DNA from: an uncultured cyanobacterium
Lineage (GTDB): Bacteria; Cyanobacteriota; Cyanobacteriia; Cyanobacteriales; CAWCAG01
Direction of reading: 5' to 3'
DNA: 64,000 nt
Assembly: GCA_963793425.1 (NCBI GenBank)
Contig: CAWCAG010000005.1
Location: 1,376,001-1,440,000, forward strand
Notes under the pieces: model-generated
Seen by the model: only the letters and a program-made list of their open reading frames with translations
The model's database searches: none
Told to the model about the DNA's origin: nothing
Position numbers and translations under genes: made by a program
Part shown: piece by piece, positions 1,882-40,731 of the stretch
Layout: every line of letters starts with the position of its first letter
Position numbering within the stretch: the first letter of the stretch is position 1

Positions 1882-3693
1882 ATGAATTCAGAAGATTTAG
1901 CAAATTCAAAAATAATATTCATCAGGAAAAAACTCAATAAACTTAAGCAAGTATGGAAGAAAGAAGGAACTTTAGGTGTTTTCAAATTTATTTATCAAAA
2001 GATTACGAAAAAAAATAAGAGTAAGGTTAGCTATCAAAAGTGGTTTGAAAAGAACCAGTTAAAAAATGGTGATATCATCAAAGCTCGCTGGCAAATAAGC
2101 CAGATGAAATTACGCCCCAAATTTTCAGTCATTATGCCAGTGTATAATGTTGAAAAAAAATGGCTAGAGAAAGCAATTGAATCTGTACGTGAACAAATTT
2201 ATCCTGACTGGGAACTTTGCATAGCTGATGATGCTTCAACTGAACCTCATATTCGGCCGCTTCTTGAGAAATACAGTAAGCTTGATTCTCGCATTAAAGT
2301 TCTCTTCAGAAAAGAAAATGGTCACATTTCTACTGCTAGTAACTCTGCTTTAGAACTAGCAACAGGGGACTATATTGCTCTTTTAGATCATGATGATGAA
2401 TTGACTATTAATGCTTTATTGGAAAATGCGAAGTTAATCAATAGTCATCCGAAAGCAGATTTCATCTATAGCGATGAAGACAAGATAGACACAAAAGGGA
2501 ATTTTTCAGAACCATTTTTTAAGCCAGATTGGTCTCCAGAATACTTCTATGCTTGTATGTATACCTGCCATTTAGGTGTCTATCGAACTAAGCTAATTAG
2601 AGAAATTAAGGGTTTTCGTAGCGAGTATGATGGTTCGCAAGATTATGATCTCGTTTTAAGATTCGTTGAAAAAACAAAAAACATTTATCATATTCCTAAA
2701 ATTCTTTACCATTGGCGCATGATACCTACCTCCGCCGCCTCTACACCCGAAGCTAAACCTTGGGCTTATAAAGCCGGTTGGAAAGCTCTAGAATCTATGT
2801 TAGAGCGTAGCTTATATTCAGGGTTTGTCTCTGAGCAGATCAGCCCTGGATCGTACCGAACAAGACGAAAAATTATCGATCAACCTTTGGTGAGTATTAT
2901 TATTCCCAGTGCTGGTAAATGGGTAGATACACATCAAGGTTCCGTGTGCATCCTTCAAAAGTGTATTCAAAGTATTAGGCAATTAAGCACTTATCGTAAT
3001 TTTGAAATTATCTTAGTTGATGGTTATGATATCGCTGAATCAACTCTCAAGGAAATCTCAGATTCTGATTTAACTATAGTTCGTTGTGACGAACCTTTCA
3101 ACTTCTCCATGAGAATAAATACGGGAGTAGCAAAAGCGGCAGGAAAATTCTTGTTACTCTTGAACGATGACATAGAAATTATTACCCCTGATTGGATTGA
3201 ATCCATGTTGGAATTTGCTCAACAGGATGAAATTGGCGCAGTAGGAGCTAAGCTATTTAGTGCTGATAGGGAAATTCAACATATTGGAGTTATTTTATTT
3301 GAAAATATACCCGAACATATTTTTTATCATTGGCCAGGAGATCACTTGGGCTATTTCAATTTCAACTGTGTCAATAAAAATTATTTAGCTGTTACGGCTG
3401 CTTGTTTAATGGTCAGGAAAGAACTATTTGAGCAACTAGGAGGACTAGATGAAGAATTTCCTATTAACTACGGAGATGTAGATTTCTGTATGAAAATATA
3501 TCAAGCAGGATATAGAAATGTGGTTACGCCATTTGCTCAACTAATTCATTATGAATCTGTTAGTAGAGGTAAAGGTGCAGAAGCTGAGGAGAAGAAAGAA
3601 TTTAAGCAAAAGTGGCAAAATTATCTTAATTCTATAGGAGGAGATCCTTATTACCATCCAATTTTTGAGAATAGGGGGGATTTTGATTTTTAA
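1882..3693 (+). CDS. Two-domain GT2 glycosyltransferase
   Basis: Domain 1: SVIMPVYN, LDHDD, YSDED, SQDYDL. Domain 2: SIIIP, LLNDD, GDVDFC. Confidence 0.9.
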   Translation: MNSEDLANSKIIFIRKKLNKLKQVWKKEGTLGVFKFIYQKITKKNKSKVSYQKWFEKNQLKNGDIIKARWQISQMKLRPKFSVIMPVYNVEKKWLEKAIESVREQIYPDWELCIADDASTEPHIRPLLEKYSKLDSRIKVLFRKENGHISTASNSALELATGDYIALLDHDDELTINALLENAKLINSHPKADFIYSDEDKIDTKGNFSEPFFKPDWSPEYFYACMYTCHLGVYRTKLIREIKGFRSEYDGSQDYDLVLRFVEKTKNIYHIPKILYHWRMIPTSAASTPEAKPWAYKAGWKALESMLERSLYSGFVSEQISPGSYRTRRKIIDQPLVSIIIPSAGKWVDTHQGSVCILQKCIQSIRQLSTYRNFEIILVDGYDIAESTLKEISDSDLTIVRCDEPFNFSMRINTGVAKAAGKFLLLLNDDIEIITPDWIESMLEFAQQDEIGAVGAKLFSADREIQHIGVILFENIPEHIFYHWPGDHLGYFNFNCVNKNYLAVTAACLMVRKELFEQLGGLDEEFPINYGDVDFCMKIYQAGYRNVVTPFAQLIHYESVSRGKGAEAEEKKEFKQKWQNYLNSIGGDPYYHPIFENRGDFDF

Positions 3694-4619: not shown

Positions 4620-4888
4620 CGAGAAATCATTAACATCTGACAATAAAACAGCTACATATTATCTCTGAGTAAAATTCAAACCTAGTAAAGAGGAACTCTA
4701 CACATTCAGTTTATTTCAGTCAATATTACCCTATTTTACTAGTATGTTCGGCTTTTTGCCTTTTACTACTCTTAAACTGTGATGATCCCTGTTGCTAGAG
4801 AATTTATCCTGTATTCATATTCCAAGTTAAAAATGCTATATAATCTCAAACATTTCCTTAGACAAAATCAATATTCCTTTTAAAAAAA

Positions 4889-6697: not shown

Positions 6698-8044
6698 ATG
6701 AATCAATCTCTTTCTCATCTAGTAAGTCAGTCTGAATTAGAGCAAGAAATGCGCTCTAAAGTTCTTGAGACAGTTCTTGCCTATTATAATTTTAAATTTT
6801 CAGCTCGGAAATTCATTCCTGGTCAAACTTATATACCCGTTTCAGGTAAAGTTTTTGATGAAGATGAACTCCTTAAGCTAGTAGACTCCTCCCTGGACTT
6901 TTGGCTGACAACAGGACGCTACGCCAGGGAATTTGAGCAGAAATTTGCAACCTGGATGGGTATCAAACATTGTCTTTTAGTTAACTCTGGTTCTAGTGCC
7001 AATTTATTAGCGTTAACAGCTCTCACCTCACCCAAACTAGGAGATCAGCGACTACAACCTGGTGATGAGGTGATTACAGTTGCTGCGGGATTTCCCACTA
7101 CAGTTAATCCGATTTTTCAAAATCAGCTAGTTCCAGTTTTTCTAGATGTAGAAATACCTAGCTATGATATTGATGTTTCTCAACTAGAAGCGGCTTTATC
7201 CTCCCGGACAAGAGCTATCATGATTGCTCATACTTTGGGGAATCCCTTTGATATAAAAACGATAATGGCGTTTGCTCAGAAGCACAATCTTTGGGTAATT
7301 GAAGATAACTGTGACGCAGTGGGTAGTCTTTATGAAAACTGCAAAACTGGTACTTTCGGACATTTAGCCACTGTCAGTTTTTATCCTGCTCACCATATGA
7401 CAATGGGAGAAGGAGGAGCAATATTAACCAGTGATACTCGACTGAAAAAAATAGTAGAATCTTTTCGTGATTGGGGTCGTGATTGTTGGTGTCCTCCAGG
7501 AATAGATAATACCTGCGGAAAACGTTTTAGCTGGCAACTTGGCAATTTACCTTCCGGCTATGATCATAAGTATACTTACTCTCACATAGGCTACAACCTA
7601 AAAATGACTGATATGCAAGCAGCAGTCGGTTGCGCTCAACTCGAAAAGTTACCAAATTTCATCACTAAGCGTCGAGAAAACTTCCAATTTTTGTCTGAGC
7701 AATTGGCAGATTTACAGGAATTATTAGTCTTGCCTAAAGCAACTAATAATTCTGAACCTAGCTGGTTTGGCTTTCCCATATTTATCCGAGATAATGCTCC
7801 TTTTAGTCGCAATGAATTGGTTCAGCATTTGGAAAATAAACGTATTGGTACTCGTCTATTATTTGGTGGTAATTTGTTAAGACAGCCAGCATATCAGGGA
7901 TTAAATTATCGGACAGTGGGAACACTCAGTAACTCAGATAGAGTAATGCACAGTGTTTTTTGGATTGGGGTATTTCCTGGTTTAACAGAAGAGATGTTAA
8001 CTTACATAACTTCAACTATTCGCCAGTTTTGCCAGAAATTTTAA
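6698..8044 (+). CDS. rfbH: CDP-4-keto-6-deoxyglucose 3-dehydrase (E1, PMP/[2Fe-2S])
   Basis: SFYPAHH (His in place of the PLP Lys), [20 protein letters not shown]. Confidence 0.93.
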
Positions 8045-8071: not shown

Positions 8072-8980
8072 TTGAGTGAAGCAACACAAACTATCATAGT
8101 TACAGGAGCAACAGGTTTTTTAGGTAGTCATTTAGTCAAGAAACTACTTGAAGATAACCATAGAGTTGTTATTCTCAAGCGAAGCTTTTCTAATCCTAGG
8201 AGAATCAATGATGTTTTACCTTATCTCATTTGCTATGACATAGATAAATGTAAATTAGCTAAACCCTTTCGGGATTTTACTAGAGTAGATGCCATTATTC
8301 ATACAGCTACTTGTTATGGCCGTAAAAATGAAAGTACTGCTAGTATTTTTTCTACAAATACTTTTTGGCCTTTACAACTGCTTGAATATGCTAGTCAACA
8401 AGAAAACATAACTTTCTTTAATACTGATACAGTTTTGCCTAAACACTTAAATAACTACTCCCTTTCTAAAGCACATTTTCGTGAATGGGGAGAACATTTT
8501 TCTAAACAAGAAAAGATTAAGTTTATTAATATCAAGCTTGAACATATGTTTGGAGCTAATGATGATGACTCAAAATTTACGACCTATGTAATTAAAAACT
8601 GTCTTGCTAATACACCAGAACTTAAATTAACGTATGGAGAGCAGAAGCGAGATTTTATTCATATTGATGACGTTGTATCTGCATACAATATACTACTTTG
8701 CAATAAGGATAATCTAAACAAGTTTTACCAAGAGTTTGAATTAGGAAGTGGTAAGGCAATTTTTATTCGCCAATTTGTGGAGATGATACATAAATTAACC
8801 TTCTCACAGACAATTCTTAAATTTGGAGCTATAGATTATCGCCCAGATGAAATCATGTATTCTGAAGCGAAAGTAAAATCACTTCTAGATTTAGGTTGGA
8901 TGCCAGAACAAACCATAGAAGAAGGTTTACATAAAACTATTGCTTGGTATGTGAAAAATAAGCAAATGGAGGATAGTTAG
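8072..8980 (+). CDS. CDP-3,6-dideoxy-4-hexulose reductase (paratose/abequose synthase-like SDR)
   Basis: [42 protein letters not shown]; lies between rfbH and rfbE. Confidence 0.8.
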
Positions 8981-8982
8981 CT

Positions 8983-10023
8983 ATGAAATATTTAGTGACA
9001 GGGGGATGTGGGTTTTTAGGTAGTAACATTGCGGCACAAGTACTTAGCCAAGGTGATGAACTAATAGCATTGGATAATCTTTATCGTTTAGGAAGTCGTC
9101 AGAATCTAGACTGGTTAAAAAGTCAAGGTGACTTCCAGTTTACTCATGCTGATATTCGCAATTCCCATGATGTTGAGCAAATTATTAAAGAAGTTAAGCC
9201 AGAAGTTATTTTTCACTTGGCTGGTCAAGTCGCAATGACAACCTCTCTAGCTAATCCTCGTCTAGATTTTGAAGTGAATGCACTAGGTACACTAAACTTG
9301 CTTGAGGCAGTACGAAAGTTTTCTTCGGAAAGCGCTATTATCTATTCTTCTACAAATAAAGTCTACGGGGATTTAGAAAAAATTCAATATCAGGAGTTGG
9401 AGAAGCGATATATTTGTCCTGAATATCCGAAGGGGTTTGATGAGTCTTTTCCCCTTAATTTTCATTCTCCTTATGGTTGCTCAAAAGGCTCGGCTGACCA
9501 GTACATACAGGATTATAGTCGAATGTTTGGTTTACAGACTGTAGTATTTAGACACTCTTCTATCTATGGTGGACGGCAGTTTTCAACTTATGATCAAGGC
9601 TGGATTGGCTGGTTTTGTCAAAAAGCTTTGGAAATCAAACATAATCCCGATGTCAAGCCTTTTACAATATCCGGCAATGGTAAACAAGTACGTGATGTTT
9701 TATATGCCAGTGATGCTATAGCCTGTTATTTTCAAGCTGCTAAGAAAATTAGCCAAGTCAAAGGGCTAGTTTTTAACATTGGAGGTGGAGTAACAAATAG
9801 TCTTTCCCTACTTGAGTTATTTAGTTTACTAGAAGAACTAACTGGGACAAACTTACGGTGGGAACAACTTCCTTGGCGTGCTAGCGATCAAAAAGTATTT
9901 ATTGCTAACATCGAGCAAGCCCATCAAATCCTTCAATGGCAGCCACAAATTTCTTTTCGCGAAGGTATCAAGAAAGCTTTATCTTGGATTAATGATACTT
10001 TTAGTAAACCAAACAATGACTGA
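8983..10023 (+). CDS. rfbE: CDP-paratose 2-epimerase (CDP-tyvelose synthesis)
   Basis: [62 protein letters not shown], matching Salmonella RfbE as recalled. Confidence 0.9.
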
Positions 10024-10963
10024 CAACAGAATGAAGTTGATTAGTGTAGTAACCCCTTGTTTTAACGAAGAAGAAAATATAGAAGATGTTTATACCAAAG
10101 TTAAGCACGAATTTGAGCAATTACAAAATTATCAGTATGAGCATATATTTATTGATAATTCTTCTCAAGATAGAACTGTAAGTATTCTGAGGGATATTGC
10201 TCAAAAAGATAAGAAGGTAAAGATCATAGTCAATGCGAGAAACTTTGGTTTTGTACGCTCTTCTTACTACGGCCTTCTTCAAGCCTATGGAGATGCTGTT
10301 ATATTTCTCTTAGCCGACTTGCAAGACCCACCTTCGATGATCGCTACATTTATTCAGGAATGGGAACAAGGACATAAAGTGGTGCAAGGGGTAAGAACTT
10401 CAAGCAAGGAGTCCTTTCTCTTATTCACAGTTAAAAGGCTTTACTATTATGTTCTGAACCAGTTATCAGATATACAGCTAACAAGAAATACAACTGGGTT
10501 TGGCCTTTATGATAAGCAAGTAATGGATATGCTCCGCCAAATAGATGATCCTTATCCTTACTTTAAGGGATTGATTTCAGAATTAGGATTTGACAGTAAG
10601 AAAATACAGTATGTAAGTGCGGCTCGTAAAAGAGGAGTTAGTAGCGCTAATTTTTTAATGCTTTATGATTTTGCCATGCTTGGCATCACAAGTCATAGCA
10701 AGCTTCCTCTAAGGCTAGCAACTATCACAGGTTTTTTTATGGCTTTACTAAGCTTGCTTATATCATTAGGATATCTTATCTATAAACTTTTATATTGGGA
10801 TTTGTTTCCTGTTGGAACAGCTTCTCTGCTTGTAGGAATATTCTTCATTGGCTCTGTGCAGCTATTTTTTATTGGTATTTTAGGAGAGTATATTGGCTTT
10901 ATGCATACCCAAATCCTGAAAAGACCAATAGTTATAGAAAGAGAAAGAATTAACTTTAAATAA
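10016..10963 (+). CDS. GtrB/DPM1-like polyprenyl-phosphate glycosyltransferase (GT2 with two C-terminal TM helices)
   Basis: [34 protein letters not shown] at 10016 preferred over the ORF-track start. Confidence 0.85.
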
Positions 10964-13354
10964 ATGAGTATTGCTAATTTTAGAATCAAACCTCCTAGAT
11001 TAAAAAATGAAATCATCACAGCCATAGCTATCCTAGCTACGCTTATTCCCATTCTAAATATTGTAGTCATAATAGCAACAACAGGAGCTAATAACTTCTC
11101 AAACGACTATATTCAATCTCTAGGAATTATTGATCAGTTTTTAAGCGGTACTTATGATTGGAATAATTATTTCCAGGACACATTTTTTAACGGTCATATC
11201 GTATTTTTCCCTGTACTTATCCGGCTAGCTATAGCTTACTTTGCACATTCCAATGTTTATGTAGAGTTTTATATCAGTGTAATATTTTTTTTTATAAAAT
11301 TAATTTTACTACATGATATTTTTGCTCAATCAATTAAACCTTCCCGTAAATGGTTGCTGTTGCCAATACTCTCATGTCTAGTTTTTTCAACATCACAAAT
11401 AAGCGTATTTACTTTTGGCTACGCAGCCTTAGAAATTAGTTTATGTATGTTAGGTTTTACTCTAGGAATGTGGGGGTTAGTCAAATTTTCAGGAAGTTGG
11501 CTAGGAGTTGTCATCATGTTATTAGGTGGTATTTTAGCATCCTGGTCATTTGGTTTTGGTCTTATGGCATGGTTGGCCTTCCTATTAGGATTAATTCTAC
11601 TTAAGTTCCGAAAAGCCGGACACTACATTGCTTATTTGATTACTTTTACAATAGCTTCATCGCCTTACTTTTTTTTCTTCAAGCTTCAGTCTAATCCTGG
11701 AACTTCAATAGTTCCTACTCTAAATTTAATATTTATTCCTAGAAGTATTGGCTTACCACTTGCTCAAGGTTTTGCTCTTGGTTCTGCTCAATGGATTGGT
11801 TTTGTGGGAATAATATTACTTTTTATTCAGCTTTATTATCTTTGGCAAAAGCATTCTTCTAACTTATTAAAACAAGCAGCACCAGCTCTAATGCTAGTTA
11901 GTTTTGCACTACTCAGTATTTTGCAAGTTACTATATTTCGTGCTAATCATGCTCCTTGGTATACAACCCCATCTATGAATTTTTGGATTGGATTAGTAGG
12001 TTCTGCTTCTGTATTTTTGATTAATCGCCAATACAGCTTTTATAAAATAGGAATTGGTAAATTTAAACCTCTCAATCCAACTAGTTGGAGTTTTTCTGTT
12101 TTGACTTTAGTAGCATTTTTCTATGTTACTTCCAACCTTACCTATGAAGATAAAGTATTTCACCTTCCTTCTCGCAGTCCTTCTTCTGCTGCTTGCTTGA
12201 GGGAGTACCTCAATGCTCCAACCTATTGTGAAGAGCGTTTATTTCAATGGGGACTAGGAAATACAGGTCTAGTAGAAAAATTAGCTACACCACTTGATCG
12301 CCATAAACTCTCAGTTTTTTCACCTCGCCAACGTTGGACTTTACAAGGAGATTTTGTACTCGATAAAGTCAGTATTGAGGAAACTCCAGAAGCTGGTGAT
12401 ATATTCTGGTCAGAGAATAGAACTATTGAAAACCGATTGCCTTGGCATCACTACAAACACCTCAACTTATTTTTACCCTCTCCAAATACGGCATCCTGGA
12501 CTATATCATTACCAAATAATCTCAAGAGTGCTAACTTCAATTCTGCTGTCGCAGTAAGTAAATCAGCTCCCAAAGATAATGCTGCTGATGGACTTACTTT
12601 TGAGGTTTATATAGAGAAGAGTCAGGAAAAAAGAAAGCTAGCTTATTCCTATACAACTAAACCTAATCAAAGTTATTGGCAACCTTTTTCTATCTCTCTA
12701 AACGATTATGTTGGAGAGACTGTCACTTTGCACTTAACATCTTCTTCTGGCAAAAACTCTATTGGTGACTGGGGAATGTATCGCTACCCTTATATAGATG
12801 TTTTGCTTAATTCTTTGGATGAAAATAGTTCCGAAGAGTTAAAAGTTAGACCTTCTAATACAGATATTTCATCTCTATTTACTAAAACAACTTCCAATGA
12901 TTTTCGCTTTGATGTCACCGACATAAACCAGTGGGAGCAGTCTGGTTTGGAAATGATAAATAAAAATCAGAATTCCTCTATGATTTGGAAAATAACAGAT
13001 GTTCCAAATTTAACTTTCATAAGACCTTTGAATGTTCAGCTCAATAATTATACTCATTTCTACATAAGTTTAGCTGTATCTCCAGCAATAGCCCCTCGCG
13101 CACTTACACTTCGTTATAAATTAGATGACGGAGTAGAACAGTCGATACCAATCACTCTTTTAGCCGATGGAAATTTACATGAATATACTTATGATTTAAA
13201 ACTTTTAGAACTCGATCAAACAGCCCATTTAACTAGTTTAAGTATTACGCCCGTAATTGTAGATGGACGTAGTAATATAGCATCAATTTCTCATAAAGAT
13301 AATTGGGTTAATATTTCAGATATTCGCTTAATCTCTAAACTTAATTTTAATTAA
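10964..13354 (+). CDS. Polytopic membrane protein, GT-C-like, with C-terminal carbohydrate-binding-type beta domains
   Basis: About 11 hydrophobic segments in the N-terminal 390 aa; acidic ND after TM1; C-terminal DGLTFEV...WQPFSISLNDYVGETVTLHL jelly-roll-like motif. Confidence 0.6.
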   Translation: MSIANFRIKPPRLKNEIITAIAILATLIPILNIVVIIATTGANNFSNDYIQSLGIIDQFLSGTYDWNNYFQDTFFNGHIVFFPVLIRLAIAYFAHSNVYVEFYISVIFFFIKLILLHDIFAQSIKPSRKWLLLPILSCLVFSTSQISVFTFGYAALEISLCMLGFTLGMWGLVKFSGSWLGVVIMLLGGILASWSFGFGLMAWLAFLLGLILLKFRKAGHYIAYLITFTIASSPYFFFFKLQSNPGTSIVPTLNLIFIPRSIGLPLAQGFALGSAQWIGFVGIILLFIQLYYLWQKHSSNLLKQAAPALMLVSFALLSILQVTIFRANHAPWYTTPSMNFWIGLVGSASVFLINRQYSFYKIGIGKFKPLNPTSWSFSVLTLVAFFYVTSNLTYEDKVFHLPSRSPSSAACLREYLNAPTYCEERLFQWGLGNTGLVEKLATPLDRHKLSVFSPRQRWTLQGDFVLDKVSIEETPEAGDIFWSENRTIENRLPWHHYKHLNLFLPSPNTASWTISLPNNLKSANFNSAVAVSKSAPKDNAADGLTFEVYIEKSQEKRKLAYSYTTKPNQSYWQPFSISLNDYVGETVTLHLTSSSGKNSIGDWGMYRYPYIDVLLNSLDENSSEELKVRPSNTDISSLFTKTTSNDFRFDVTDINQWEQSGLEMINKNQNSSMIWKITDVPNLTFIRPLNVQLNNYTHFYISLAVSPAIAPRALTLRYKLDDGVEQSIPITLLADGNLHEYTYDLKLLELDQTAHLTSLSITPVIVDGRSNIASISHKDNWVNISDIRLISKLNFN

Positions 13355-13529
13355 TTTTGTAGTAATTATAGTTAATGAATATTATATAAACTAATATTTT
13401 TGATGTTCTTATAAGGTTAAACTAGTGAAAAATGCTGAATTGCTTTCCTGATATTTACCAGGCTTGTTTCTGCACAGTGTCATGGTGATATGATTAATAA
13501 CTGGATTAACATTATCCAGTGTACTTAAA

Positions 13530-34200: not shown

Positions 34201-36624
34201 GAAGTATTAGAAAAGTTTGCGACGAGGGAAATAAAATGCAAAGTAGACTATTTATTTAATTCTTTTATTTTTCATTGGAAAGAATCTGCTAATTCTGCCA
34301 TAGAACCATTACGAGAAACTATTCAAGTAGGTTTAGAAACTGGAGATATTGAATTTGCTTGTTATGGTGCTGTGGAATATTGTTCCAATCTTTTGTTATT
34401 AGGACAGCCTTTAGATTATATTAGCCAGCAGCATCAACAATATATTGATTTGATTAGGAAAAATAAGCAAGGATATTCTTTAGCTTACGTAAAAATCTGG
34501 AGCCAGTTGGTTGAAAGTTTAAGAGGTAATTCAGAAAATCAACAACAATTAGTTGGAGAAGAATTTGATGAAGTAACGATGTTGCCAAGGTTACTTCAAA
34601 CTAATAACTTAAACTTAGTTTTCCAGGTTTATTTAGCTAAAACTATTTTAAGTTACTTATTTAAAGACTATTCAGCAGCCATGACCCATGCTTCTTTAGG
34701 AGCCAATTATGAGCCTTCTGTAGTGGGTTTATTTAATGTTGCTCAGCATAACTTCTACTATTCTTTAGCTTTACTGGCTAACTGTACTAAAAATAATGAA
34801 AGTAGGAAAGAGCAGTTTTTAAAGAAAGTTGTTGCTAATCAACAGAAAATGAGCATTTGGTCTAACCATGCTCCGATGAATTTTTTACATAAATATGAAT
34901 TAGTAGAAGCAGAAAAAGCACGAGTTTCAAATCAATATTGGCAAGCCGCAGAACTTTATGAAAATGCTATCAAAAACGCTAGGGAATCTGGCTATACTCA
35001 AGATGAAGCCTTAGCTTATGAGTTGGCCGCAGAATTTTATTTAAGTCGTGGCATGGCAGAAGTTGGGCAGCTTTATATGACAAAAGCTCATTACAGCTAT
35101 CAACATTGGCAAGCTACCGCTAAAGTAAAAGATTTGGAAAAGAGGCATCCTCAGTTGTTTTCTTCAACTCCTATAGTTCCTAATAAGCTTAAAAATAACT
35201 CTACAATCGCGACAACAGATCCTTCTAACCTTTTAGATATAACCAGTGTTCTTAAAGCTTCTCAAGCATTAGGTAGCGAGATTGTTTTAGACAAATTGCT
35301 GACGCGAATGATGAAAATTGTGATAGAAAATGCGGGGGCAGATAGGGGCTTTCTTTTATTAAATAAATCTGATGGCTGGGTAATTGAAGCCATGGGAACT
35401 ATTGGTGAAGAAAAAATTACCATAGAACAATTACCATTAGAAGATGCTCAACAGCAATCTCGCTTACCTAAAACTATTATTAATTATGTAAGTCATACTC
35501 ACAAAAATCTTGTCTTAGGAGATGCTGTTCAGGTGGGTGCTTTCACCCAAGATCCCTATATTATAAGTCATAAACCTAAATCAATTCTCTGTACACCTTT
35601 ACTCAACCAAGGAACATTAGTAGGTATTGTTTATTTAGAGAATAGTTTGATTGCAGAAGCTTTTACCCCAGATCGCTCAGAGCTTCTCCATTTACTTTCT
35701 TCTCAAGCTGCTATTTCTCTAGAGAATGCCCGCTCCTACAGCCGTCAAGTGGAACTGACAGATTCCTATAGTCGTTTTGTTCCCGCTGAGTATTTAGAGT
35801 TTTTGCAAAAGAAAAGTATTACCCAAGTAAAGTTAGGGGATCATGTTAGTAAAGAGATGGCAGTGATGTTTTCTGATATTCGCTCCTTCACTGCCATTTC
35901 TGAAAATATGACTCCCCAAGAAAACTTTGATTTTGTCAACAATTATCTTAGGGAAGTAAGTCCCAAAATCCGTGGCAATGATGGTTTCATTGTTAAATAT
36001 TTAGGGGATGGGATGATGGCTGTTTTTCCGAATGGGGCTGACAATGCTTTAGCGGCCGGAATTGCTAAACTGCAACAGGTGGAAATATATAATCGTCAGC
36101 GTCAAGAAAATAACCAACCTCCGATTAAAGTAGGAGTTGGCATACACGTTGGTCATATGATGGTAGGAATGGTGGGAGAAACTGCCCGTATGCAAGGAGA
36201 TGCTTTTTCTGATAATGTCAATCTCACAGCCCGTTTAGAAAGTTTGACTAAGTTCTATGGTGTTTCTTTAGTGATTAGCGAGACTACGAAAGAAAGGTTG
36301 AGCAATCCTCAGCAATATAAAATACGTTTCCTTGATAAAGTTATTCTTAAAGGTAAGAAAAATCCTATCGCCATTTTTGAAGTATTAGATGGCAACAACC
36401 CAGAGGATATTGCAGCTAAGTTAGCAACTCAAGGAGATTTTGAAAAAGGTTTGGAGTGCTATCGTTTAGGGGCAGTAGCAGAAGCAGAAGGCTACTTTAA
36501 GCAAGTTTTAACCAGCAACCCCAATGACAGTGTTTCTCAGCTTTATTTGGAGCGAGTAGAGGAACTTAAAAAAGAAGGTGTACCTAAAAATTGGGATGGG
36601 GTTTGGAGTTTGAAGCGGAAATAG
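31213..36624 (+). CDS. Ser/Thr kinase - AAA/STAND-like ATPase - helical repeats - GAF - class III adenylate cyclase - TPR
   Basis: Kinase HKDINPSN, DFG; ATPase GYSGVGKS, LFLDDLQW; GAF SILCTPL..YLEN; cyclase FSDIRSFT, KYLGDG, NLTARLE. Confidence 0.92.
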   Translation: MLTIGGYLIKEQLFESAHSKIYRGYREIDQQSVVVKMLKDAYPSPERIAWFQREYELLQSLNLIGVAEAYELVTYQSTWAMILEDFGGESLEKLELAGALSIPEFLPLAIKITGILGQIHGCSVIHKDINPSNIVLNPQSGEVKIIDFGIATLLSRENPTFRNPNVLEGTVAYISPEQTGRMNRSMDYRSDFYSLGVTFYKLLTGRVPFVTDEAIELVHAHIAKQPPPLQQDSETGQEEIPQVIVDIVMKLMAKNAEERYQSAYGLKADLDKCLQQLKKKGEIEVFPLAQRDISDKFQIPQKLYGREAEIDALLAAFERTSKGIPPNHLSTGGVEMILVAGYSGVGKSVLVNEIHKPITAKRGIFIAGKYEQYQGNIPYFAISQAFNEFCNQLLSESPETLKIWREKILTAVGNNGQVLIEVIPELALVIGQQPPLAQVSPQEAQNRFHLVFQNFVKAISQAENPLVLFLDDLQWVDTASLKLLKLLMSDKSYRYLLIVGAYRVNEVDATHPLKIALDSIEAESGVISSIHLKNLTKTDVNTLLTEALNCEPDYSQSLADLVYKKTQGNAFFTKEFLKSLYESGLLTFEFPSISLLVTGQSKGGWQWNVSQIQAENITDNVVELMADKICHLDTETQTVLQLAACIGNSFNLSLLTQLYQKQYQVKTATSQSILSDLWQALQEGLVVPLNEQYKLINTELSGASKEEKINFNQFKRAIFKFQHDRVQQAAYALISPQKRQQKIHVQIADLLLENTQPEELEESIFDIVNQYNEGLSLIEVEKAMELARLNLKAGKKAKVATAYEPAVKYLNIGLDLLSEQSWQTEYDLTFALHIEAIEAEYLNTNFEQAKFLTDIVLSNANTVLDKVKVYENQILFYITQNEQQTAIHIGLRVLEMLEVSLYDSPPPNLDINKLASLPEMADPDKLAAMRILMTIAVPAYIANPTMLPQILFTMIDLCVNYGNSPSAPVAYAFYGSLLCTMFSDIETGYQFGHLALEVLEKFATREIKCKVDYLFNSFIFHWKESANSAIEPLRETIQVGLETGDIEFACYGAVEYCSNLLLLGQPLDYISQQHQQYIDLIRKNKQGYSLAYVKIWSQLVESLRGNSENQQQLVGEEFDEVTMLPRLLQTNNLNLVFQVYLAKTILSYLFKDYSAAMTHASLGANYEPSVVGLFNVAQHNFYYSLALLANCTKNNESRKEQFLKKVVANQQKMSIWSNHAPMNFLHKYELVEAEKARVSNQYWQAAELYENAIKNARESGYTQDEALAYELAAEFYLSRGMAEVGQLYMTKAHYSYQHWQATAKVKDLEKRHPQLFSSTPIVPNKLKNNSTIATTDPSNLLDITSVLKASQALGSEIVLDKLLTRMMKIVIENAGADRGFLLLNKSDGWVIEAMGTIGEEKITIEQLPLEDAQQQSRLPKTIINYVSHTHKNLVLGDAVQVGAFTQDPYIISHKPKSILCTPLLNQGTLVGIVYLENSLIAEAFTPDRSELLHLLSSQAAISLENARSYSRQVELTDSYSRFVPAEYLEFLQKKSITQVKLGDHVSKEMAVMFSDIRSFTAISENMTPQENFDFVNNYLREVSPKIRGNDGFIVKYLGDGMMAVFPNGADNALAAGIAKLQQVEIYNRQRQENNQPPIKVGVGIHVGHMMVGMVGETARMQGDAFSDNVNLTARLESLTKFYGVSLVISETTKERLSNPQQYKIRFLDKVILKGKKNPIAIFEVLDGNNPEDIAAKLATQGDFEKGLECYRLGAVAEAEGYFKQVLTSNPNDSVSQLYLERVEELKKEGVPKNWDGVWSLKRK

Positions 36625-36631
36625 TTGTTCA

Positions 36632-36767
36632 CATAAATAGCACCGGAAACACCATCACCTGGAAGTAATGACTCATTTGCAGCGTCAACAATTACGTCCA
36701 CTTTTTGATGTGTGATATCTCCCTGTTGTATCTCTATTTGCTCTTTAATTACTTTTGTCTCTACCAT
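36632..36767 (-). pseudogene. Macro domain N-terminal fragment
   Basis: IEIQQGDITHQKVDVIVDAANESLLPGDGVSGAI, then truncated at the cyclase gene end. Confidence 0.8.
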
Positions 36768-36969
36768 CAGGATATTCCTCCCTAAATCTCTGGAGAATAG
36801 ACTTATCAGTTGCTTCGTAGACAATAGAATTTTTTTGTCCAAGGACAGGCTTAATATGCTTGACTTCACCTGAAACTATGGGAAGGGGGATTGGCTCAGA
36901 TGCAAATGCAGCGCAGGAGCCATCAAATTGAAAGTGCTTGCAGTATTTGCATCCTTTATATTCTGCCAT
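36745..36969 (-). CDS. Small Cys/His-rich protein
   Basis: CKYCKHF..C.AF..PIP..I.SG...H.KP; overlaps the macro-fragment start. Confidence 0.6.
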   Translation of the reverse strand: MAEYKGCKYCKHFQFDGSCAAFASEPIPLPIVSGEVKHIKPVLGQKNSIVYEATDKSILQRFREEYPDGRDKSN

Positions 36970-37006
36970 TAAATTGTCTTTCTTCGTGTAGTTACAGATT
37001 GTTCAA

Positions 37007-37090
37007 TGCGATCGCCTATTTTATTTCGATTAATTCTGGTGGGCAAAGATAGATGAGTTTCTGAAGCTAATTCAACGACTGAATCTTGCC
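37007..37090 (+). repeat. Direct repeat A, copy 1 (HIP1 plus REP-like palindrome)
   Basis: 82/84 identical to 40314-40397 by manual alignment. Confidence 0.92.
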
Positions 37091-37216
37091 AACCTATTAG
37101 TAATTGATTTGCTATTAGACATATTATGATGGGCAAATAAATAATAAATTTGATTGTCCATCCTAACGAAGGTATTTTGCCCACCCTACCTAAAAGCTTG
37201 AGATATACCATCTGAA

Positions 37217-37253
37217 TGCGATCGCATTCATTAAAGCTTGCCAGAGATAAAGT
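37217..37253 (+). repeat. Direct repeat B, copy 1 (starts at HIP1)
   Basis: 32/37 identical to 40113-40149 by manual alignment. Confidence 0.85.
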
Positions 37254-37304
37254 CAGATTAGTTCGTTGGCTTGAGTAAATATAGTCACATGGAAGAACTT
37301 AAAG

Positions 37305-37559
37305 ATGAAGAATAGTGCGCCTCTGTTAGTTGAAGAAACAAACCTCTCGCGTATGTGGGCTACTGTATTTCTGCATATTATTGATAATTCTGGAAAAGAG
37401 ATTTCGCCACTTATAGTAACTTTAACGGGCTTGACATTTGGGCGTATGAACTGTTTCGTTGGTGTAGCAAAGCTAGATACCATCACTAAATCAGATGATA
37501 GTTTAACTACTCTCAAAAAGGTAGCTCGAAATGCGCTGCCCTCAACTACTAACGAATAA
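37305..37559 (+). pseudogene. Probable thymidylate-synthase-like gene with an in-frame deletion of its core
   Basis: N-terminus NLSRMW...EISPLIVTLTG fused to a C-terminus-like LTFGRMNCFVGVAKL; lies upstream of aGPT-Pplase1/MazG genes. Confidence 0.5.
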
Positions 37560-37578
37560 ACAGTAGAGGGAATACAAC

Positions 37579-38706
37579 ATGAAAACTAAACCTCAGAAAC
37601 ACACAACTAAAAATGCTCAGCAACACAAACAACTAAGTCTTGACTTTGGCCAATATGATTCTGAACAAAGCTCAACACCAAAGATTATTTCATATCTTCC
37701 TGGTGCTAAGCCTACAATTGTATTCAACACTTACTGGCGATTTGCTGCTGAACGGCAAAAAGTATTTTTCAAAAAGTTAGAAAATGCCCCAATACCTTGG
37801 ACTGACGACCCAATTGTTTCAACCTACAAGTTTACCAATGCTTACCGCGCTTCAGATCGTGTAAGCCAGTATTTGATCCGTAATGTCATTTACCAGAATG
37901 ATCTGCCATCATCATCTAACGAGGTATTCTTTAGGATTATCCTTTTCAAAATATTCAATAAGATCGAGACTTGGCAGCTTTTAGAAAAAAAGCTTGGTTC
38001 CCTTGTTTACGCTGAATATTCCTTTGAACGCTATGATCAAGTTCTCACAGAGGCCATTCAGTCAGGCCAAGCTATCTATTCTGCTGCATACATAATGCCA
38101 TCAGGAGGAACAAGCTTTGGACATATAGCGAAACATCGTAACTACCTCAAGCTAATCGAGAAAATGATGGCTGAGGAGCTACCAAAAAAGCTTGCTGATG
38201 CCCAGAATATGCAGCAAGGATTCGATTTGCTGCGAGGATATCCAACTATTGGCGACTTTTTGGCTTATCAGTTTATTACTGATGTTAACTATAGTGAAAT
38301 TACGAACTTTAGCGAAATGGATTTTGTGATTCCTGGCCCTGGGGCGCTAGATGGTATTCGTAAATGCTTTAGTGATTTGGGCGGACTGAGCGAACCAGAA
38401 ATTATAGAGCGCATGGGAGAGAATCAAGAGTCTGAGTTTGAGCGACTAGGACTGAATTTTCAGTCTCTCTGGGGAAGAAGGCTACAATTGATTGATTGCC
38501 AAAATCTATTTTGCGAGGTCGATAAATATGCTCGCATGAAACATCCCGGTATTGCTGGAATATCAGGTCGCTCTCGTATCAAACAAAAATACTCAGGTAA
38601 AGGACAATTTCTAGATTTCTGGTATCCACCTAAATGGGGAATTAATCAGGCTATTGAAAAATACAAAACAGTTGCTAAAGTTCATACTCCGTTGAAGTCT
38701 AAATAG
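37579..38706 (+). CDS. aGPT-Pplase1 / amino acid:DNA transferase-like DNA base hypermodification protein (HhH-glycosylase-like fold)
   Basis: YWRFAAERQ, PWTDDPI..YKFTNAYRASDRVSQ, IGDFLAYQ..D, GPGALDG, QNLFCEVDKY. Confidence 0.85.
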   Translation: MKTKPQKHTTKNAQQHKQLSLDFGQYDSEQSSTPKIISYLPGAKPTIVFNTYWRFAAERQKVFFKKLENAPIPWTDDPIVSTYKFTNAYRASDRVSQYLIRNVIYQNDLPSSSNEVFFRIILFKIFNKIETWQLLEKKLGSLVYAEYSFERYDQVLTEAIQSGQAIYSAAYIMPSGGTSFGHIAKHRNYLKLIEKMMAEELPKKLADAQNMQQGFDLLRGYPTIGDFLAYQFITDVNYSEITNFSEMDFVIPGPGALDGIRKCFSDLGGLSEPEIIERMGENQESEFERLGLNFQSLWGRRLQLIDCQNLFCEVDKYARMKHPGIAGISGRSRIKQKYSGKGQFLDFWYPPKWGINQAIEKYKTVAKVHTPLKSK

Positions 38707-38715
38707 AATCTCAAG

Positions 38716-39594
38716 GTGTCAAGCATGGATTTTCGTGAATATCAGGAACAAGCCCAAAAGACGGATCAAGTTCCCGGTAAAGAAGGAAAAGGAATAACTG
38801 TACCTCTGTTGGGCTTAGTTGGAGAAGCAGGGGAATTGCTCAGTGAATACAAAAAGTACTTACGGGACGGAGAAGCCCATAGGCTTTTTCCAGAACGTGC
38901 TGCCGAAGAGTTGGGGGATATGCTTTGGTATATTGCCAATTTATCTAGCAAGTTTGATCTTAGTCTGGAAAAAATTGCTGAAGACAATATTGAGAAAATA
39001 TTTGATCGTTGGGGATGGAAAAATTCACTACAAACACAGATACACATATTTGACAGTAATTTTCCTGGAAATGAGCGTTTACCACGTCAGTTTGATGTTG
39101 ATCTCACAGAGGTAAACGGAAACAACTCCGTAAAAATGAGAGCATTTGTCAACGGAAAACAAATTGGTGACGACCTCACTGATAATTCTTACTCAAACGA
39201 TGGTTATCGCTTTCATGATATTTTCCATCTTTCCTATGCCGCAGTATTAGGGTGGTCACCAGTCATGCGTCGCAATCTTAAATGTAAGCGAAAAAGTGAC
39301 CCTAGTATTGATGAAGTAGAAGATGGCGGTCGTGCGATCGCAATTGAAGAGGGTATATCAGCCCTTGTATTCAGCTATGCCAAAGACCATCAGTTTTTAG
39401 AAGGAGTTGATACTCTTGACTACCAGTTGCTCAAAACTATTAAAACTATGACTTATTACTTAGAAGTCTCTCAATGTTCCCTTGGTGATTGGGAAAAAGC
39501 TATCCTGAGTGGATACGAAGTCTGGCGAGAAATAGTAGAAAATGGAGGTGGGGAAGTGACTGTAAATCTTGATCAACGTACCTTAAGACGATAA
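38716..39594 (+). CDS. MazG-like NTP pyrophosphohydrolase fused to a MazG-C domain
   Basis: GLVGEAGE...EELGDMLWY; C-domain GDDLTDN..DGYRFHD.FH...GWSPV.R...KRKS...DEVEDG.RA..IEEG. Confidence 0.88.
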   Translation: MSSMDFREYQEQAQKTDQVPGKEGKGITVPLLGLVGEAGELLSEYKKYLRDGEAHRLFPERAAEELGDMLWYIANLSSKFDLSLEKIAEDNIEKIFDRWGWKNSLQTQIHIFDSNFPGNERLPRQFDVDLTEVNGNNSVKMRAFVNGKQIGDDLTDNSYSNDGYRFHDIFHLSYAAVLGWSPVMRRNLKCKRKSDPSIDEVEDGGRAIAIEEGISALVFSYAKDHQFLEGVDTLDYQLLKTIKTMTYYLEVSQCSLGDWEKAILSGYEVWREIVENGGGEVTVNLDQRTLRR

Positions 39595-39612
39595 AAGTTT
39601 AAAGTTATTAAC

Positions 39613-40089
39613 TTAAGCTCGATAAAGCATAGGCTTTGTACTGCTTTTAAGATACAGTGGATGAAATGGACAGCCTCCTTGAGTGATTCCCAAACAGTAT
39701 AAGGGTTTAAAGCCAGTTATCCTCTCAAGAACATCCGTACAACGGTTCCTTAAAATGCCCCGATTTCCCCAAGCTACAATGATTTTATCTGCTGATTTAA
39801 CAGACTTTTCGAGGTAGCAATCATTTTCAGGTCCTACTGGATCTTTGACATTTTGCAGAGTTACTGGTTTTGAGGCCCGATAACCAAATAGGTTAACCAC
39901 TTCAAGGGAACCATAACCCCAAGACTGAGCGAAACCGATGCAGCGACGCAGGGTAGGATCATCCTTCGTTGCATCTGCGCGACTGGGGTTAAGCATAATA
40001 AAGGTGAGTTTAGGAGCATTTGTGTCCCATTCCCGCAAGAGCCAGTAGCGGTAGTATTCTGTTGAGTCTATTACTACATCTTTTATCAT
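39613..40089 (-). CDS. DUF1643 family protein
   Basis: YRYWL.REW, FIMLNPS.AD...DDPT.RRC, VVNLF, AWG, HPLY. Confidence 0.88.
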   Translation of the reverse strand: MIKDVVIDSTEYYRYWLLREWDTNAPKLTFIMLNPSRADATKDDPTLRRCIGFAQSWGYGSLEVVNLFGYRASKPVTLQNVKDPVGPENDCYLEKSVKSADKIIVAWGNRGILRNRCTDVLERITGFKPLYCLGITQGGCPFHPLYLKSSTKPMLYRA

Positions 40090-40112
40090 AGTTGCTTGTA
40101 AGATGGTGAAGT

Positions 40113-40149
40113 TGCGATCGCATTTATCAAAGCTTGCTAGAAAAAAAGT
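40113..40149 (+). repeat. Direct repeat B, copy 2 (starts at HIP1)
   Basis: Matches 37217-37253. Confidence 0.85.
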
Positions 40150-40313
40150 ATGAGTGCTTCATCCCTTCTTCAAACCACAACTAAGCTACCCCATAGCCTG
40201 TATAAGGGCGTTTATAACTTGATAGACTGCTTTAGCTTTTTTATATTTTTGGAAAGTAAAAAATTTAATAGCTCAGTATTAGTATACATATTAGTTGCCA
40301 CCTCTATCTTTAG

Positions 40314-40405
40314 TGCGATCGCCTATTTTATTTCGATTAATTCTGGTGGGCAAAGACAGATGAGTTTCTGAAGCTAATTCAACTACTGAATCTTGCCCAC
40401 CCTAC
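40314..40405 (+). repeat. Direct repeat A, copy 2 (HIP1 plus GGTGGGCAA...TTGCCCACCCTAC palindrome)
   Basis: Matches 37007-37090. Confidence 0.92.
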
Positions 40406-40731
40406 GCAGACAAAAGTTATACGAAAAATAGACGTGAAAGTCTACAGCTTTCCTAGAAAATGAACTAAATCAGCTTATTTTGTAGGGAAATTATGCAGTT
40501 ACCAATGCAACTATCTTGGAAAAGGGTTTTGAGTTTGTTTTCTGTGATCGCTTTAATATCTTTATGTGTACCTGTTCGTAGTTATGGCTTTTCTTCAAGT
40601 GATGTTGATATTCGTTTGAGTAGTTTAGCGATTATGAGTGCTACTCTCAAATACGTCAGGCTTTAAAGGCTTGGATTATCAATGAAAGCTGATTTCGAGG
40701 TTATACCTTCCCCAATGATCACAATTTCTCC

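Follow-up and report, generated by a model that had tools for sequence, protein, structure and literature searches.

The function of HIP1, the palindromic octamer GCGATCGC of cyanobacteria, has been debated for thirty years. A 352-bp excision at smtB that was flanked by HIP1 has been ascribed to illegitimate recombination between HIP1 copies (Gupta 1993, as cited in PMC13756078), and HIP1-promoted excision is stated to be about as frequent in E. coli as in Synechococcus (Robinson 1997, as cited in PMC4390886). Evidence of site-specific recombination at HIP1 in Synechococcus PCC 7002 (Elhai 2015, PMC4390886) and a Chi-like boost of recombination by HIP1 (Kamoku and Nielsen 2024) are likewise reported. 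The octamer may also serve as a target, as the 21-nt repeat SDR5 is reported to insert inside HIP1 and to split it between nucleotides 3 and 4 (PMC4390886, citing Elhai 2008).

In the genome studied here, HIP1 outnumbers every other 8-mer. In the window, i.e., the whole 64,000-nt stretch that was analysed, HIP1 sites at 37008, 37218, 40114 and 40315 mark the left edges of two nested direct-repeat pairs, A on the outside and B on the inside, whose four copies all lie on the plus strand and flank a 2.9-kb gene block. The left copy of A (37007..37094) consists of a T, HIP1 (37008–37015), 22 nt and a hairpin module (37038–37094) with a mutated 3' arm (TTGCCAACC; DNA fold z-score −1.35). The right copy (40314..40405) comprises a T, HIP1 (40315–40322), 22 nt, an intact module (40345–40401) and CTAC, and its DNA fold z-score is −3.43. 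Positions 37002–37094 and 40309–40401 share 95% identity across 93 nt; if counting starts at the T that precedes HIP1, there are 2 mismatches in 84 nt and 96.6% identity across 88 nt. Each copy of B is a T, HIP1 and about 40 nt (left, 37217..37264 with HIP1 at 37218–37225, 40 nt upstream of a gene remnant, X; right, 40113..40160 with HIP1 at 40114–40121, 23 nt outside the start codon of a DUF1643 gene). The two are 79% identical over 48 nt, share 23 of the first 30 nt beyond the octamer and have no fold.

An earlier sequence-only reading had described A and B as direct and nested, with similarity that begins at T/HIP1 and extends rightward only, and both pairs proved to be built in this way and in those places. 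The novel joint of each pair coincides with T/GCGATCGC; to the left the paired copies are unrelated, except perhaps for a TGAA at B, another 2 nt to the left. Also confirmed was the proximity of minus-strand gene starts to HIP1, at 38 nt for a Cys-rich ORF (start 36969) and 24 nt for DUF1643 (start 40089). The locus does not fit an SDR5-type insertion into HIP1, as all four octamers are intact at the repeat edge.

Abrupt similarity at HIP1 recurs elsewhere in the genome. When its 5,182 HIP1 flanks were compared in register, all against all, at least 23 of 30 positions matched in just 163 of 13.4 million pairs, where the chance tail extrapolated from the histogram predicts a handful; the local A and B pairs are both among the 35 one-sided pairs. 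A genome self-BLAST yielded 23,884 ends of 11,942 alignments (30–399 nt, at least 80% identity), of which 10 met HIP1 at its outer edge (offset 0 or −1) in both copies, compared with 9 across the 59 other offsets within 30 nt and 0–1 at the edges of eight control palindromic 8-mers. These ten alignments collapse to five independent cases, and some between-contig repeats may be strain variants, the genome being metagenome-assembled. One case, on contig C3, is a 266-nt direct repeat with copies 3,977 nt apart that ends exactly at HIP1 and brackets ORFs that look transposase-like from their translations. For an unrelated cyanobacterium (G013), of which 1.6 Mb were sampled, the count was 6 alignments (4 cases) ending 0–3 nt beyond the HIP1 edge versus 13 at the other 57 offsets, and two of the cases were local pairs of direct repeats with spacings of 1.5 and 2.5 kb; this signal is weak, from few cases, at least one of which lies in a WD40-type gene beside an IS1-like element (both read from translations). 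The excess of HIP1-edged repeats thus recurs beyond chance in this genome and more weakly in G013.

A is HIP1 and 22 nt followed by one module of a dispersed hairpin family, and its right end is the terminus of that module, so that the earlier description of A had to be amended. About 53 modules of some 57 nt, with arms GGTGGGCAA/TTGCCCACC, occur in the genome, which contains 48 exact TTGCCCACCCTAC termini and 137 occurrences of GGTGGGCAA. A second module of the family (37128..37189, plus strand), ending in the canonical TTGCCCACCCTAC, follows the left copy of A only and has an 88%-identical copy in a same-genus genome (G001:C6). Two further modules come 12–24 nt after HIP1 + CTA. The right copy of B is abutted by another short dispersed repeat (40163..40218, plus strand), which is 87.7% identical over 57 nt to C5:918126–918182, 3 nt from the end of a synteny block, and has a shorter match on contig C9. 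The BLASTN searches proposed by the sequence-only reading, which had named dispersed repeats as the finding that would overturn it, gave a divided answer: the hairpin part, i.e., most of A, is dispersed, whereas its HIP1-proximal 30 nt occur in the two local copies only and B is unique, found in 1 of 401 genomes searched.

These results raise the possibility that A is a small dispersed or non-autonomous mobile element of MITE, REP or SDR type, and that B may be another. Such elements would insert beside or at HIP1 or carry it at one end; local spread would have placed two copies to the left and right of the island, and they would take no part in moving genes. Many copies with terminal inverted arms are indeed found for the hairpin part of A, other genomic copies being 88–93% identical to it, and 13 of 106 module sides have a HIP1 at a distance of 60 nt or less, where 2.75 are expected (4.7-fold enrichment). 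At the site homologous to 40402 the same-genus genome lacks the module and shares CTAC, as expected for insertion, although the left side is not comparable and a target duplication is unreadable. SDR5, as described in PMC4390886 (citing Elhai 2008), offers a precedent, but there HIP1 is split and here it is intact. Neither B nor the HIP1-proximal 30 nt of A fits a dispersed element, as no further copy of B turned up in this genome or among 400 others of the order, B has no fold, and the 30 nt between HIP1 and module are confined to the two local copies. Two near-identical copies of a subfamily of about five within 3.3 kb would, moreover, arise by chance with an estimated frequency of ~0.5%. 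We consider this explanation unlikely.

Retention of A and B as functional regulatory DNA, for example as outward promoters of adjacent minus-strand genes that were copied for that reason, appears very unlikely. Both A copies contain TTGCCC-17 nt-TAAAAT on the minus strand, directed toward the Cys-rich ORF and, further on, DUF1643, and the left A and right B sit directly upstream of minus-strand genes. The right A and left B, however, have no such neighbor, promoter-like matches in the region are at shuffle expectation (10 vs. 8.8 ± 3.0), and a search of Rfam returned no match.

The gene content of the block is that of a relic. The 84-aa ORF of the block is, in correction of the sequence-only reading, what is left of gene X (37305..37559, plus strand), a thymidylate-synthase-superfamily hydroxymethylase-like gene with a weak profile match to CMP 5-hydroxymethylase (E 0.01), in which the N-terminal 44 aa are joined in frame to the C-terminal 38 aa and ~186 codons are deleted. 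It is followed on the plus strand by a gene for a 5-hmdU DNA kinase helical domain (37579..38706; PF18723, E 6.8e-113) and a MazG pyrophosphohydrolase gene with MazG_C (38716..39594; PF18722, E 1e-82; PF03819, E 1.1e-4), and convergent with this operon lies the DUF1643 gene (39613..40089, minus strand; Pfam E 6.2e-49). Reportedly, 5-hmdU DNA kinase, MazG/MazG_C and TS-like proteins make up thymidine-hypermodification modules, work associated with Lee in 2018 and Flodman in 2021. On the left, the Cys-rich orphan ORF (36745..36969, minus strand, 74 aa) matches no Pfam family and has one homologue only, at 75% identity, with the source name Baaleninema simplex. Beyond it, a fragment of ~45 codons (36627..36770, minus strand), which by eye resembles a gene of macro-domain type, is cut off where an upstream kinase gene ends and forms the left edge of the genome-specific stretch; Pfam assigned no family to the ORF in its frame (36543–36869). 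The first conserved feature on the right is a 57-aa ORF (40493..40666, plus strand) that the same-genus genome carries on another contig. The cargo is the remnant of an eight-gene island known from other cyanobacteria, of which four genes are gone (98-aa, HTH, Peptidase_M78 and ACPS). This island is a horizontally spread nucleotide-modification or defence-type set, worn down in the copy here, for which PADLOC gave no match. The stretch 36627–40401 as a whole is a genome-specific patchwork with this remnant as its core.

Synteny places the borders of the patchwork away from HIP1. In the same-genus genome, which lacks 36627–40401, homology stops at 36626 and resumes at 40402, neither of which is at HIP1, and none of the synteny-block ends against this genome within the window is within 10 nt of the octamer; breakpoints away from HIP1 in relatives were an outcome that the sequence-only reading had set against itself, and for these borders it is what was found. 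Of 39 HIP1-rich loci in which X has an intact start, none had a HIP1 between 400 nt upstream of X and 60 nt inside it, nor did any of 13 relatives with DUF1643 have one within 130 nt outside the start of that gene. A tight flanking direct repeat was found at 1 of 80 island loci, and its ends were without HIP1. The island flanks here have no similarity to those in relatives. The island's closest relative (L043) has an X whose 5' truncation point lies within 12 nt of a HIP1.

The sequence-only reading had proposed an integrase-free cassette run by the host, in which HIP1 is the crossover, two successive captures built the nest and the genes can leave again as circles of 2.9 and 3.3 kb. Several observations speak for it: the nested direct repeats all begin at HIP1, HIP1-edged repeats are in excess genome-wide, and, as it had claimed, no integrase or transposase lies nearby, Pfam having detected no recombinase domain in the 17 ORFs of 110 aa or more at 20–56 kb or in 8 local ORFs, though a recombinase encoded elsewhere could act in trans. 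The reports on PCC 7002 (cited in PMC4390886) and on Chi-like stimulation (Kamoku and Nielsen 2024) lend it further plausibility. A homology breakpoint at HIP1 is thus real in both pairs, but the successive integrase-free captures are not borne out, as the block holds the degraded remains of part of an eight-gene island instead of a functional captured unit, HIP1 marks the border of X in 0 of the 39 loci, the borders at 36626/40402 and the one tight flanking repeat are not at HIP1, and B at 79% identity is now too diverged for efficient homologous excision. We therefore rate this cassette as quite improbable. An integron- or IMEX-like site-specific cassette is not supported, as no recombinase gene was found among these ORFs and no conserved recombination site is common to the cassettes or genomes.

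Excision products and empty sites were sought directly. The assembled contigs of four sequencing runs contained no excision joint, circle junction or empty allele, these being contigs that break in A and from which rare variants are dropped; two metagenome contig scans gave no match to an empty site or circle. The empty-site alleles with a single A or B that the sequence-only reading had suggested were found in none of the relatives' genomes and metagenome contigs searched. In all four runs the short-read contigs break within A, at 37020–37036 and 40327–40343, a contig graph that is compatible with the connectivity of an empty site plus a circle and that leaves the order of the pieces unconfirmed. 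A mis-join in the metagenome-assembled genome is nevertheless extremely unlikely to have produced the repeats: runs X1 and X2 contain every piece, at the same depth and with 100% identity, fixed SNPs distinguish the A copies and are linked in each copy to its own right flank, and both B copies are on one short-read contig (37020–40343).

A Campbell-type event, i.e., integration by homologous recombination of a circle with a host-like segment that becomes duplicated, would also leave flanking direct repeats, with the HIP1 edges as incidental limits of homology. Such a structure is seen in L045: there, host DNA from the ndhL region is duplicated over 345 nt at 98.8% identity on either side of the same four-gene block, and the intact copy is the right-hand one. 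The contig concerned is a short metagenomic assembly. At the present locus, however, both left edges at HIP1 would be coincidences, estimated at ~0.5% each and less clear for A, 37–48 nt are short for RecA-dependent integration, and the genomes and metagenome contigs searched contain no single-copy empty site. We regard it as unlikely.

The explanation that we prefer, with a confidence somewhat short of even, is that the two nested pairs are scars of two duplication-generating recombinations at HIP1 that were followed by decay. The new joints would have been made at HIP1 at the left edges of the right B (40113/4) and the right A (40314/5), most likely when two HIP1 copies underwent illegitimate exchange through their short homology. 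A duplication whose copies start at HIP1 could result if sister or polyploid chromosome copies exchanged DNA in this way or if a circle excised at HIP1 integrated again, and later deletions may have trimmed the second copies to 88 nt and ~40 nt. The same type of deletion may have gutted X and removed four island genes. The right end of A would simply be the end of its hairpin module, at which further rearrangement is likely because modules of this kind are found here at synteny breaks or close by. This sequence of events agrees with the one-sided, abrupt similarity in both pairs, the self-BLAST excess with the C3 and G013 cases, the truncated X of L043, published HIP1-flanked excision and a deletion-prone context that includes the macro-type gene cut at 36627. 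It is unparsimonious in that two duplications and two trimming deletions are required, and the parental HIP1 partner was not found (0 of the 13 DUF1643 relatives). The HIP1 of A could be part of the hairpin element, given the 13 of 106 module sides, and the synteny-block ends away from HIP1, the weak G013 signal and possible strain variants in the metagenome assembly also weigh against it. Under HIP1-by-HIP1 exchange, dedicated cassette machinery would be unnecessary, and the repeats resemble recombination scars left at the octamer, not the work of a new gene-capture machine.

The locus and the genome-wide excess suggest that short-homology exchange at HIP1 leaves duplication scars around gene blocks in nature. 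Should this prove general in cyanobacteria, small-scale genome rearrangement and the turnover of islands would have a measurable driver in HIP1. The boldest extension, that HIP1 is the crossover of a host-run, integrase-free process that duplicates, inserts and excises gene blocks in cyanobacteria, perhaps with participation of a HIP1-directed nick or break or of Chi-like processing, is in our estimate improbable to a considerable degree; were it true, the A and B repeats, the 266-nt repeat on C3 and the local repeats of G013 would be footprints of one mechanism of genome plasticity, and HIP1 would gain a concrete, testable function. In annotating HIP1-rich genomes, a gene block with short direct repeats on either side should not automatically be taken for a mobile cassette.

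Among described systems, HIP1-flanked excision (smtB in Synechococcus PCC 6301 and plasmid assays) is the one of which the locus may best be read as a natural counterpart, as both have the joint exactly at GCGATCGC, no nearby recombinase gene and a HIP1-rich cyanobacterium as setting. The laboratory-selected deletions leave a single HIP1, whereas in the natural genome studied here 2.9 kb of genes are enclosed by nested duplications of 88 nt and ~40 nt. The small dispersed repeats of heterocystous cyanobacteria, SDR5 among them, as described in PMC4390886 and PMC5861425, are likewise short, dispersed, apparently mobile, intergenic, HIP1-linked and nested, but SDR5 is 21 nt long and splits HIP1, in contrast to the longer hairpins with GGTGGGCAA/TTGCCCACC arms described here, where HIP1 stays intact at a distance of 0–60 nt; the host is probably not a member of the Nostocaceae, since its family comprises only two other genomes in the searched set. 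Campbell-type or gene-end-duplicating islets share an inserted block between direct host repeats, as in L045, and differ from this locus with its lack of an integrase and of a tRNA or gene-end target, its very short repeats and its two nested pairs. Integron cassettes have in common the idea of compact or promoterless gene units bounded by recombination sites; here, there is no IntI, no array and no attC-like shared imperfect palindrome, B being unique and A a dispersed hairpin. The gene content resembles the thymidine-hypermodification or nucleotide-modification modules that DefensePredictor 2026 (PMC13092281) treats as defence candidates, with HMUDK_hel, MazG, MazG_C and a TS-like partner, yet the copy here is chromosomal, non-phage, broken and without a PADLOC match, and in relatives the block is linked to XRE/ImmA-type genes, PPTase and DUF1643.

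A repeat search of the window recovered two direct repeats, A at 37002–37094 and 40309–40401 (95% over 93 nt; 84 nt with 2 mismatches when counted from the T before HIP1) and B at 37217–37264 and 40113–40160 (79% over 48 nt), with B lying inside A in the order A-B...B-A. The DNA left of all four HIP1 octamers is unrelated between paired copies, and beyond B or left of A no extra similarity was found, scores there equaling the shuffle mean. With no residual similarity in the left flanks, a gene-conversion or Chi-like tract starting at HIP1 is ruled out, as is a single tandem duplication, since the order is not A-B...A-B. HIP1 occurs 2,591 times in the host genome (5.28 Mb in nine contigs, 40% G+C), or 0.49 times per kb, and no other 8-mer comes near this count. 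The genome thus belongs to a HIP1-rich cyanobacterium; it was probably assembled from a metagenome, as the locus is present in four sediment-metagenome runs, all from one study. Using an all-versus-all comparison, in register, of the 40 nt on either side of every HIP1 in this genome (5,182 flanks), we found that only 163 of 13.4 million flank pairs share at least 23 of 30 positions. These comprise 128 pairs that run on across HIP1 and 35 one-sided pairs (17 families), the latter including both the A pair and the B pair; several other one-sided families are apparently coding repeats, judging from TPR and ABC motifs read in their sequences. The nested direct repeats starting at HIP1, as described in the sequence-only reading, are therefore real and statistically sound, and the accompanying statement that no integrase or transposase lies nearby also held, Pfam finding no such domain in the 17 ORFs of at least 110 aa located between 20 and 56 kb.

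Repeat A is composite: T, HIP1 and 22 nt lead into a hairpin module of 57 nt (GGTGGGCAAAG...CTTGCCCACC), after which comes CTAC. This module is one of a dispersed family, represented in the genome by 48 occurrences of TTGCCCACCCTAC and 137 of GGTGGGCAA; a hairpin pattern search returned 106 strand-wise matches, equivalent to about 53 modules, often in back-to-back pairs. Genome-wide, the family takes the form of modules of about 57 nt (GGTGGGCAA...TTGCCCACC), often with a CCTAC end, and palindromic pairs of about 135 nt are frequent (e.g., contig C5:1988361–1988494). The window holds three modules, at 37038–37094, 37128–37189 and 40345–40401, the second of which follows the left copy of A only. 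The nearest non-local copies of A lie at C7:971268–971338 (93% over 71 nt to the right copy) and C5:2051865–2051910. On the right, A thus ends at the terminus of this family. Its HIP1 may have the same origin, as 13 of the 106 module sides have a HIP1 no more than 60 nt away vs. 2.75 expected (4.7-fold enrichment) and an intrinsic tie between the hairpin family and HIP1 is possible. In searches of this genome, a same-genus genome (G001), another relative (G002) and metagenomes, the 30 nt between HIP1 and the module were found in the two local copies of A only; against G001 and G002, the A and B regions gave only hairpin-family matches of 75–88%, and the exact 39-nt A pattern had no match in the metagenome scan. 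The right copy folds as a hairpin (z −3.4), the left copy is degenerate, and the window's hairpin copies have no Rfam match. That A and B act as regulatory repeats is very improbable, given that the match count of a promoter scan equals chance.

Repeat B has no further copy in the genome. Allowing up to 3 mismatches, its pattern occurs in 401 genomes of the order only at the window's two sites and in none of the other 400, and a degenerate 28-nt version had no match in the metagenome collection; B also lacks a significant fold and an Rfam match. High copy number and dispersal, raised in the sequence-only reading as grounds against a border role for both repeats, thus apply to the hairpin part of A and not to B. 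An origin of A, and perhaps B, as independent small mobile elements accords with the dispersed modules and less well with the confinement of B to its two sites, and we consider it rather unlikely.

The link of such repeats to HIP1 is real and extends beyond this locus. Self-BLAST of the genome gave 23,884 ends of alignments of 30–399 nt, of which ten coincide with the outer HIP1 edge (offset 0 or −1) in both copies, vs. nine for the remaining 59 offsets up to 30 nt away; the same offset test with eight control palindromes gave 0–1. The ten alignments collapse to five independent cases: repeat A itself; a 266-nt, 92% direct repeat at C3:9281–9546 and 13258–13523, 3,977 nt apart and also found on C2 and C6; a hairpin-family pair on C1 and C5; a 52-nt pair on C2 and C9; and a 148-nt pair on C6 and C8. 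Repeat B is too diverged for this search and was missed by it. The right edge of the 266-nt repeat is exactly a HIP1, and the repeat brackets ORFs that look transposase-like by eye from their translations; its geometry is that of the focal locus, and its contig is HIP1-poor and plasmid-like. A 1.6-Mb sample of a cyanobacterium from another family (G013; 1.35 HIP1 per kb) provided a weak replicate in the same direction, with six alignments (four cases) ending 0–3 nt beyond the HIP1 edge vs. 13 at the other 57 offsets. In two of these four cases the paired copies are direct and close together (1.5 and 2.5 kb), and one of the two, judging from the translations, sits in a WD40-type gene beside an IS1-like element. 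In the same sample, a dispersed word of about 24 nt, GCGATTGCGGTTCCCGCACGCTTC, adjoins HIP1 in at least four places (282147, 614940, 1049571 and 1594263) and is possibly an SDR-like element with a link to HIP1.

Comparison with G001, which is 88–90% identical and lacks 36627–40401, places the repeats in a heavily rearranged region. Homology stops at 36626, the stop of a large kinase/cyclase gene (1,803 aa), and restarts at 40402, the exact end of the right A hairpin, with a 280-nt block on another G001 contig; a third G001 contig carries the GTPase gene (from 40729). Across 17000–60400, blocks of 0.3–9 kb with 86–99% identity are spread over at least five G001 contigs. The two genomes represent two species of one genus, and the shuffling between them is unusually fine-grained. 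A fragment at 36627–36770 (minus strand), whose start overlaps the stop of a Cys-rich ORF, resembles by eye a macro-type gene cut after about 45 codons where the kinase/cyclase gene ends, and its position at the synteny break suggests the scar of a deletion or rearrangement. For the Cys-rich ORF, a single homolog is known. Given the truncated fragment, this orphan-like ORF and the breaks, the whole 3.8 kb is a patchwork. In one run (X3), a loose end at 36626 continues after the kinase gene as in G001; this run also contains a G001-like strain, so both arrangements coexist in the sampled habitat. A 57-nt dispersed repeat (40163–40218) adjoins the right copy of B, and its other copy (C5:918126–918182) sits 3 nt from the end of a G001-syntenic block; together with the right copy of A at 40402, this indicates that small repeats sit at synteny-block ends.

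The DNA between the B copies encodes, by Pfam, a 5-hmdU-DNA-kinase helical-domain gene (37579–38706), a gene with MazG plus MazG_C (38716–39594) and a convergent DUF1643 gene (39613–40089). We fetched 80 related loci, and in the closest cyanobacterial ones the island is made up of eight genes, namely a 98-aa gene, an XRE-type HTH, a Peptidase_M78 (ImmA/IrrE-like), gene X (260–290 aa; weak profile match to CMP 5-hydroxymethylase, E 0.01), the kinase-domain gene and MazG, and in convergent orientation a 4'-phosphopantetheinyl transferase gene and DUF1643. In the window, X is reduced to an 84-aa ORF (37305–37559) by an in-frame deletion of about 186 codons, and four of the eight island genes are absent, so that the cargo is a remnant in decay. 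At 0.403, its G+C content differs little from the window's 0.388. PADLOC gave no match for the cargo or X; domains of the cargo type appear as unvalidated defense candidates in a 2026 paper (PMC13092281). In a G013 locus (C1:4843000–4860000, at 8492–12216 of the fetched segment) X is split into two halves separated by 3.4 kb, which holds two ORFs (483 and 402 aa); the arrangement looks like an insertion into the gene.

The sequence-only reading had proposed successive gene captures by an integrase-free cassette mechanism with crossover at HIP1. The start of X is intact in 39 of 42 related loci that are rich in HIP1, and in these 39 the stretch between 400 nt before X and 60 nt inside it contains no HIP1 vs. 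about 10 sites expected at their mean density. Together with the decayed state of the cargo, this speaks against capture by cassette, and we regard a dedicated mechanism of that kind as quite doubtful in spite of the HIP1 edges. The island's upstream genes (loci L043–L122) appear to be HIP1-poor, foreign-looking DNA. The proposal would also place breakpoints in relatives at HIP1: no synteny-block end against G001 in the window lies within 10 nt of a HIP1, and a single relative breakpoint, in the closest relative (L043, a Coleofasciculus MAG), has X 5'-truncated within 12 nt of one. There, at 4855–4872, X is cut to about its last 37 codons, and an unrelated ORF upstream terminates in the HIP1. 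Of the 80 loci, one (L045) is tightly flanked by a direct repeat (345 nt at 98.8%), in which a host ndhL segment has been duplicated and neither end carries a HIP1; the copies (3098–3442 and 6930–7274 of an uncultured-bacterium contig) bracket a four-gene block X-kinase-MazG-DUF1643, the right copy being an intact ndhL. Campbell-type homologous insertion, in which the HIP1 edges would be incidental, is unlikely for the focal locus. Elsewhere, a 43-nt pair (L093) is a dispersed hairpin and two repeat pairs (L075, L095) are over 9 kb apart; the non-coding flanks showed no similarity to the 80 loci. Assembled contigs from four runs hold all pieces at even depth, break inside A and contain no joints; an assembly artefact is extremely improbable. 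A candidate back-joint from 40384 to 37176 (CAC between) was rejected as matching paralogous A-like copies, and loose ends at 37028 and 40405 likewise reflect such copies (C5:2051865, C5:584315, C7:971268). Capture and excision are not supported by cargo, relatives or reads.

In a repeat-insert-repeat layout, only one edge per pair would be a new joint, here the left edges of the right copies of B and A, so that four copies beginning at HIP1 reduce to two joints at HIP1. The simplest account, which we favor tentatively at somewhat below even chances, is that short-homology exchange between HIP1 copies yielded duplications, either when chromosome copies underwent unequal exchange or when a circle excised at HIP1 re-entered, and that the second copies would then have been trimmed by deletions in a region that demonstrably loses DNA. 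Our literature search found no account of HIP1-edged duplications around gene blocks, which does not prove that none exists. Related events are described in the literature: PMC4390886 cites Akiyama (1998) for site-specific recombination at HIP1 in PCC 7002, Robinson (1997) for illegitimate recombination and Elhai (2008) for SDR5 insertion inside HIP1. Robinson (1997) is reported to have found HIP1-promoted excision about as frequent in E. coli as in Synechococcus. Kamoku and Nielsen (2024) report a Chi-like gain in integration efficiency from homologous HIP1 sites. The HIP1-flanked 352-bp smtB excision (Gupta 1993) is attributed, in PMC13756078, to illegitimate recombination between HIP1 repeats.
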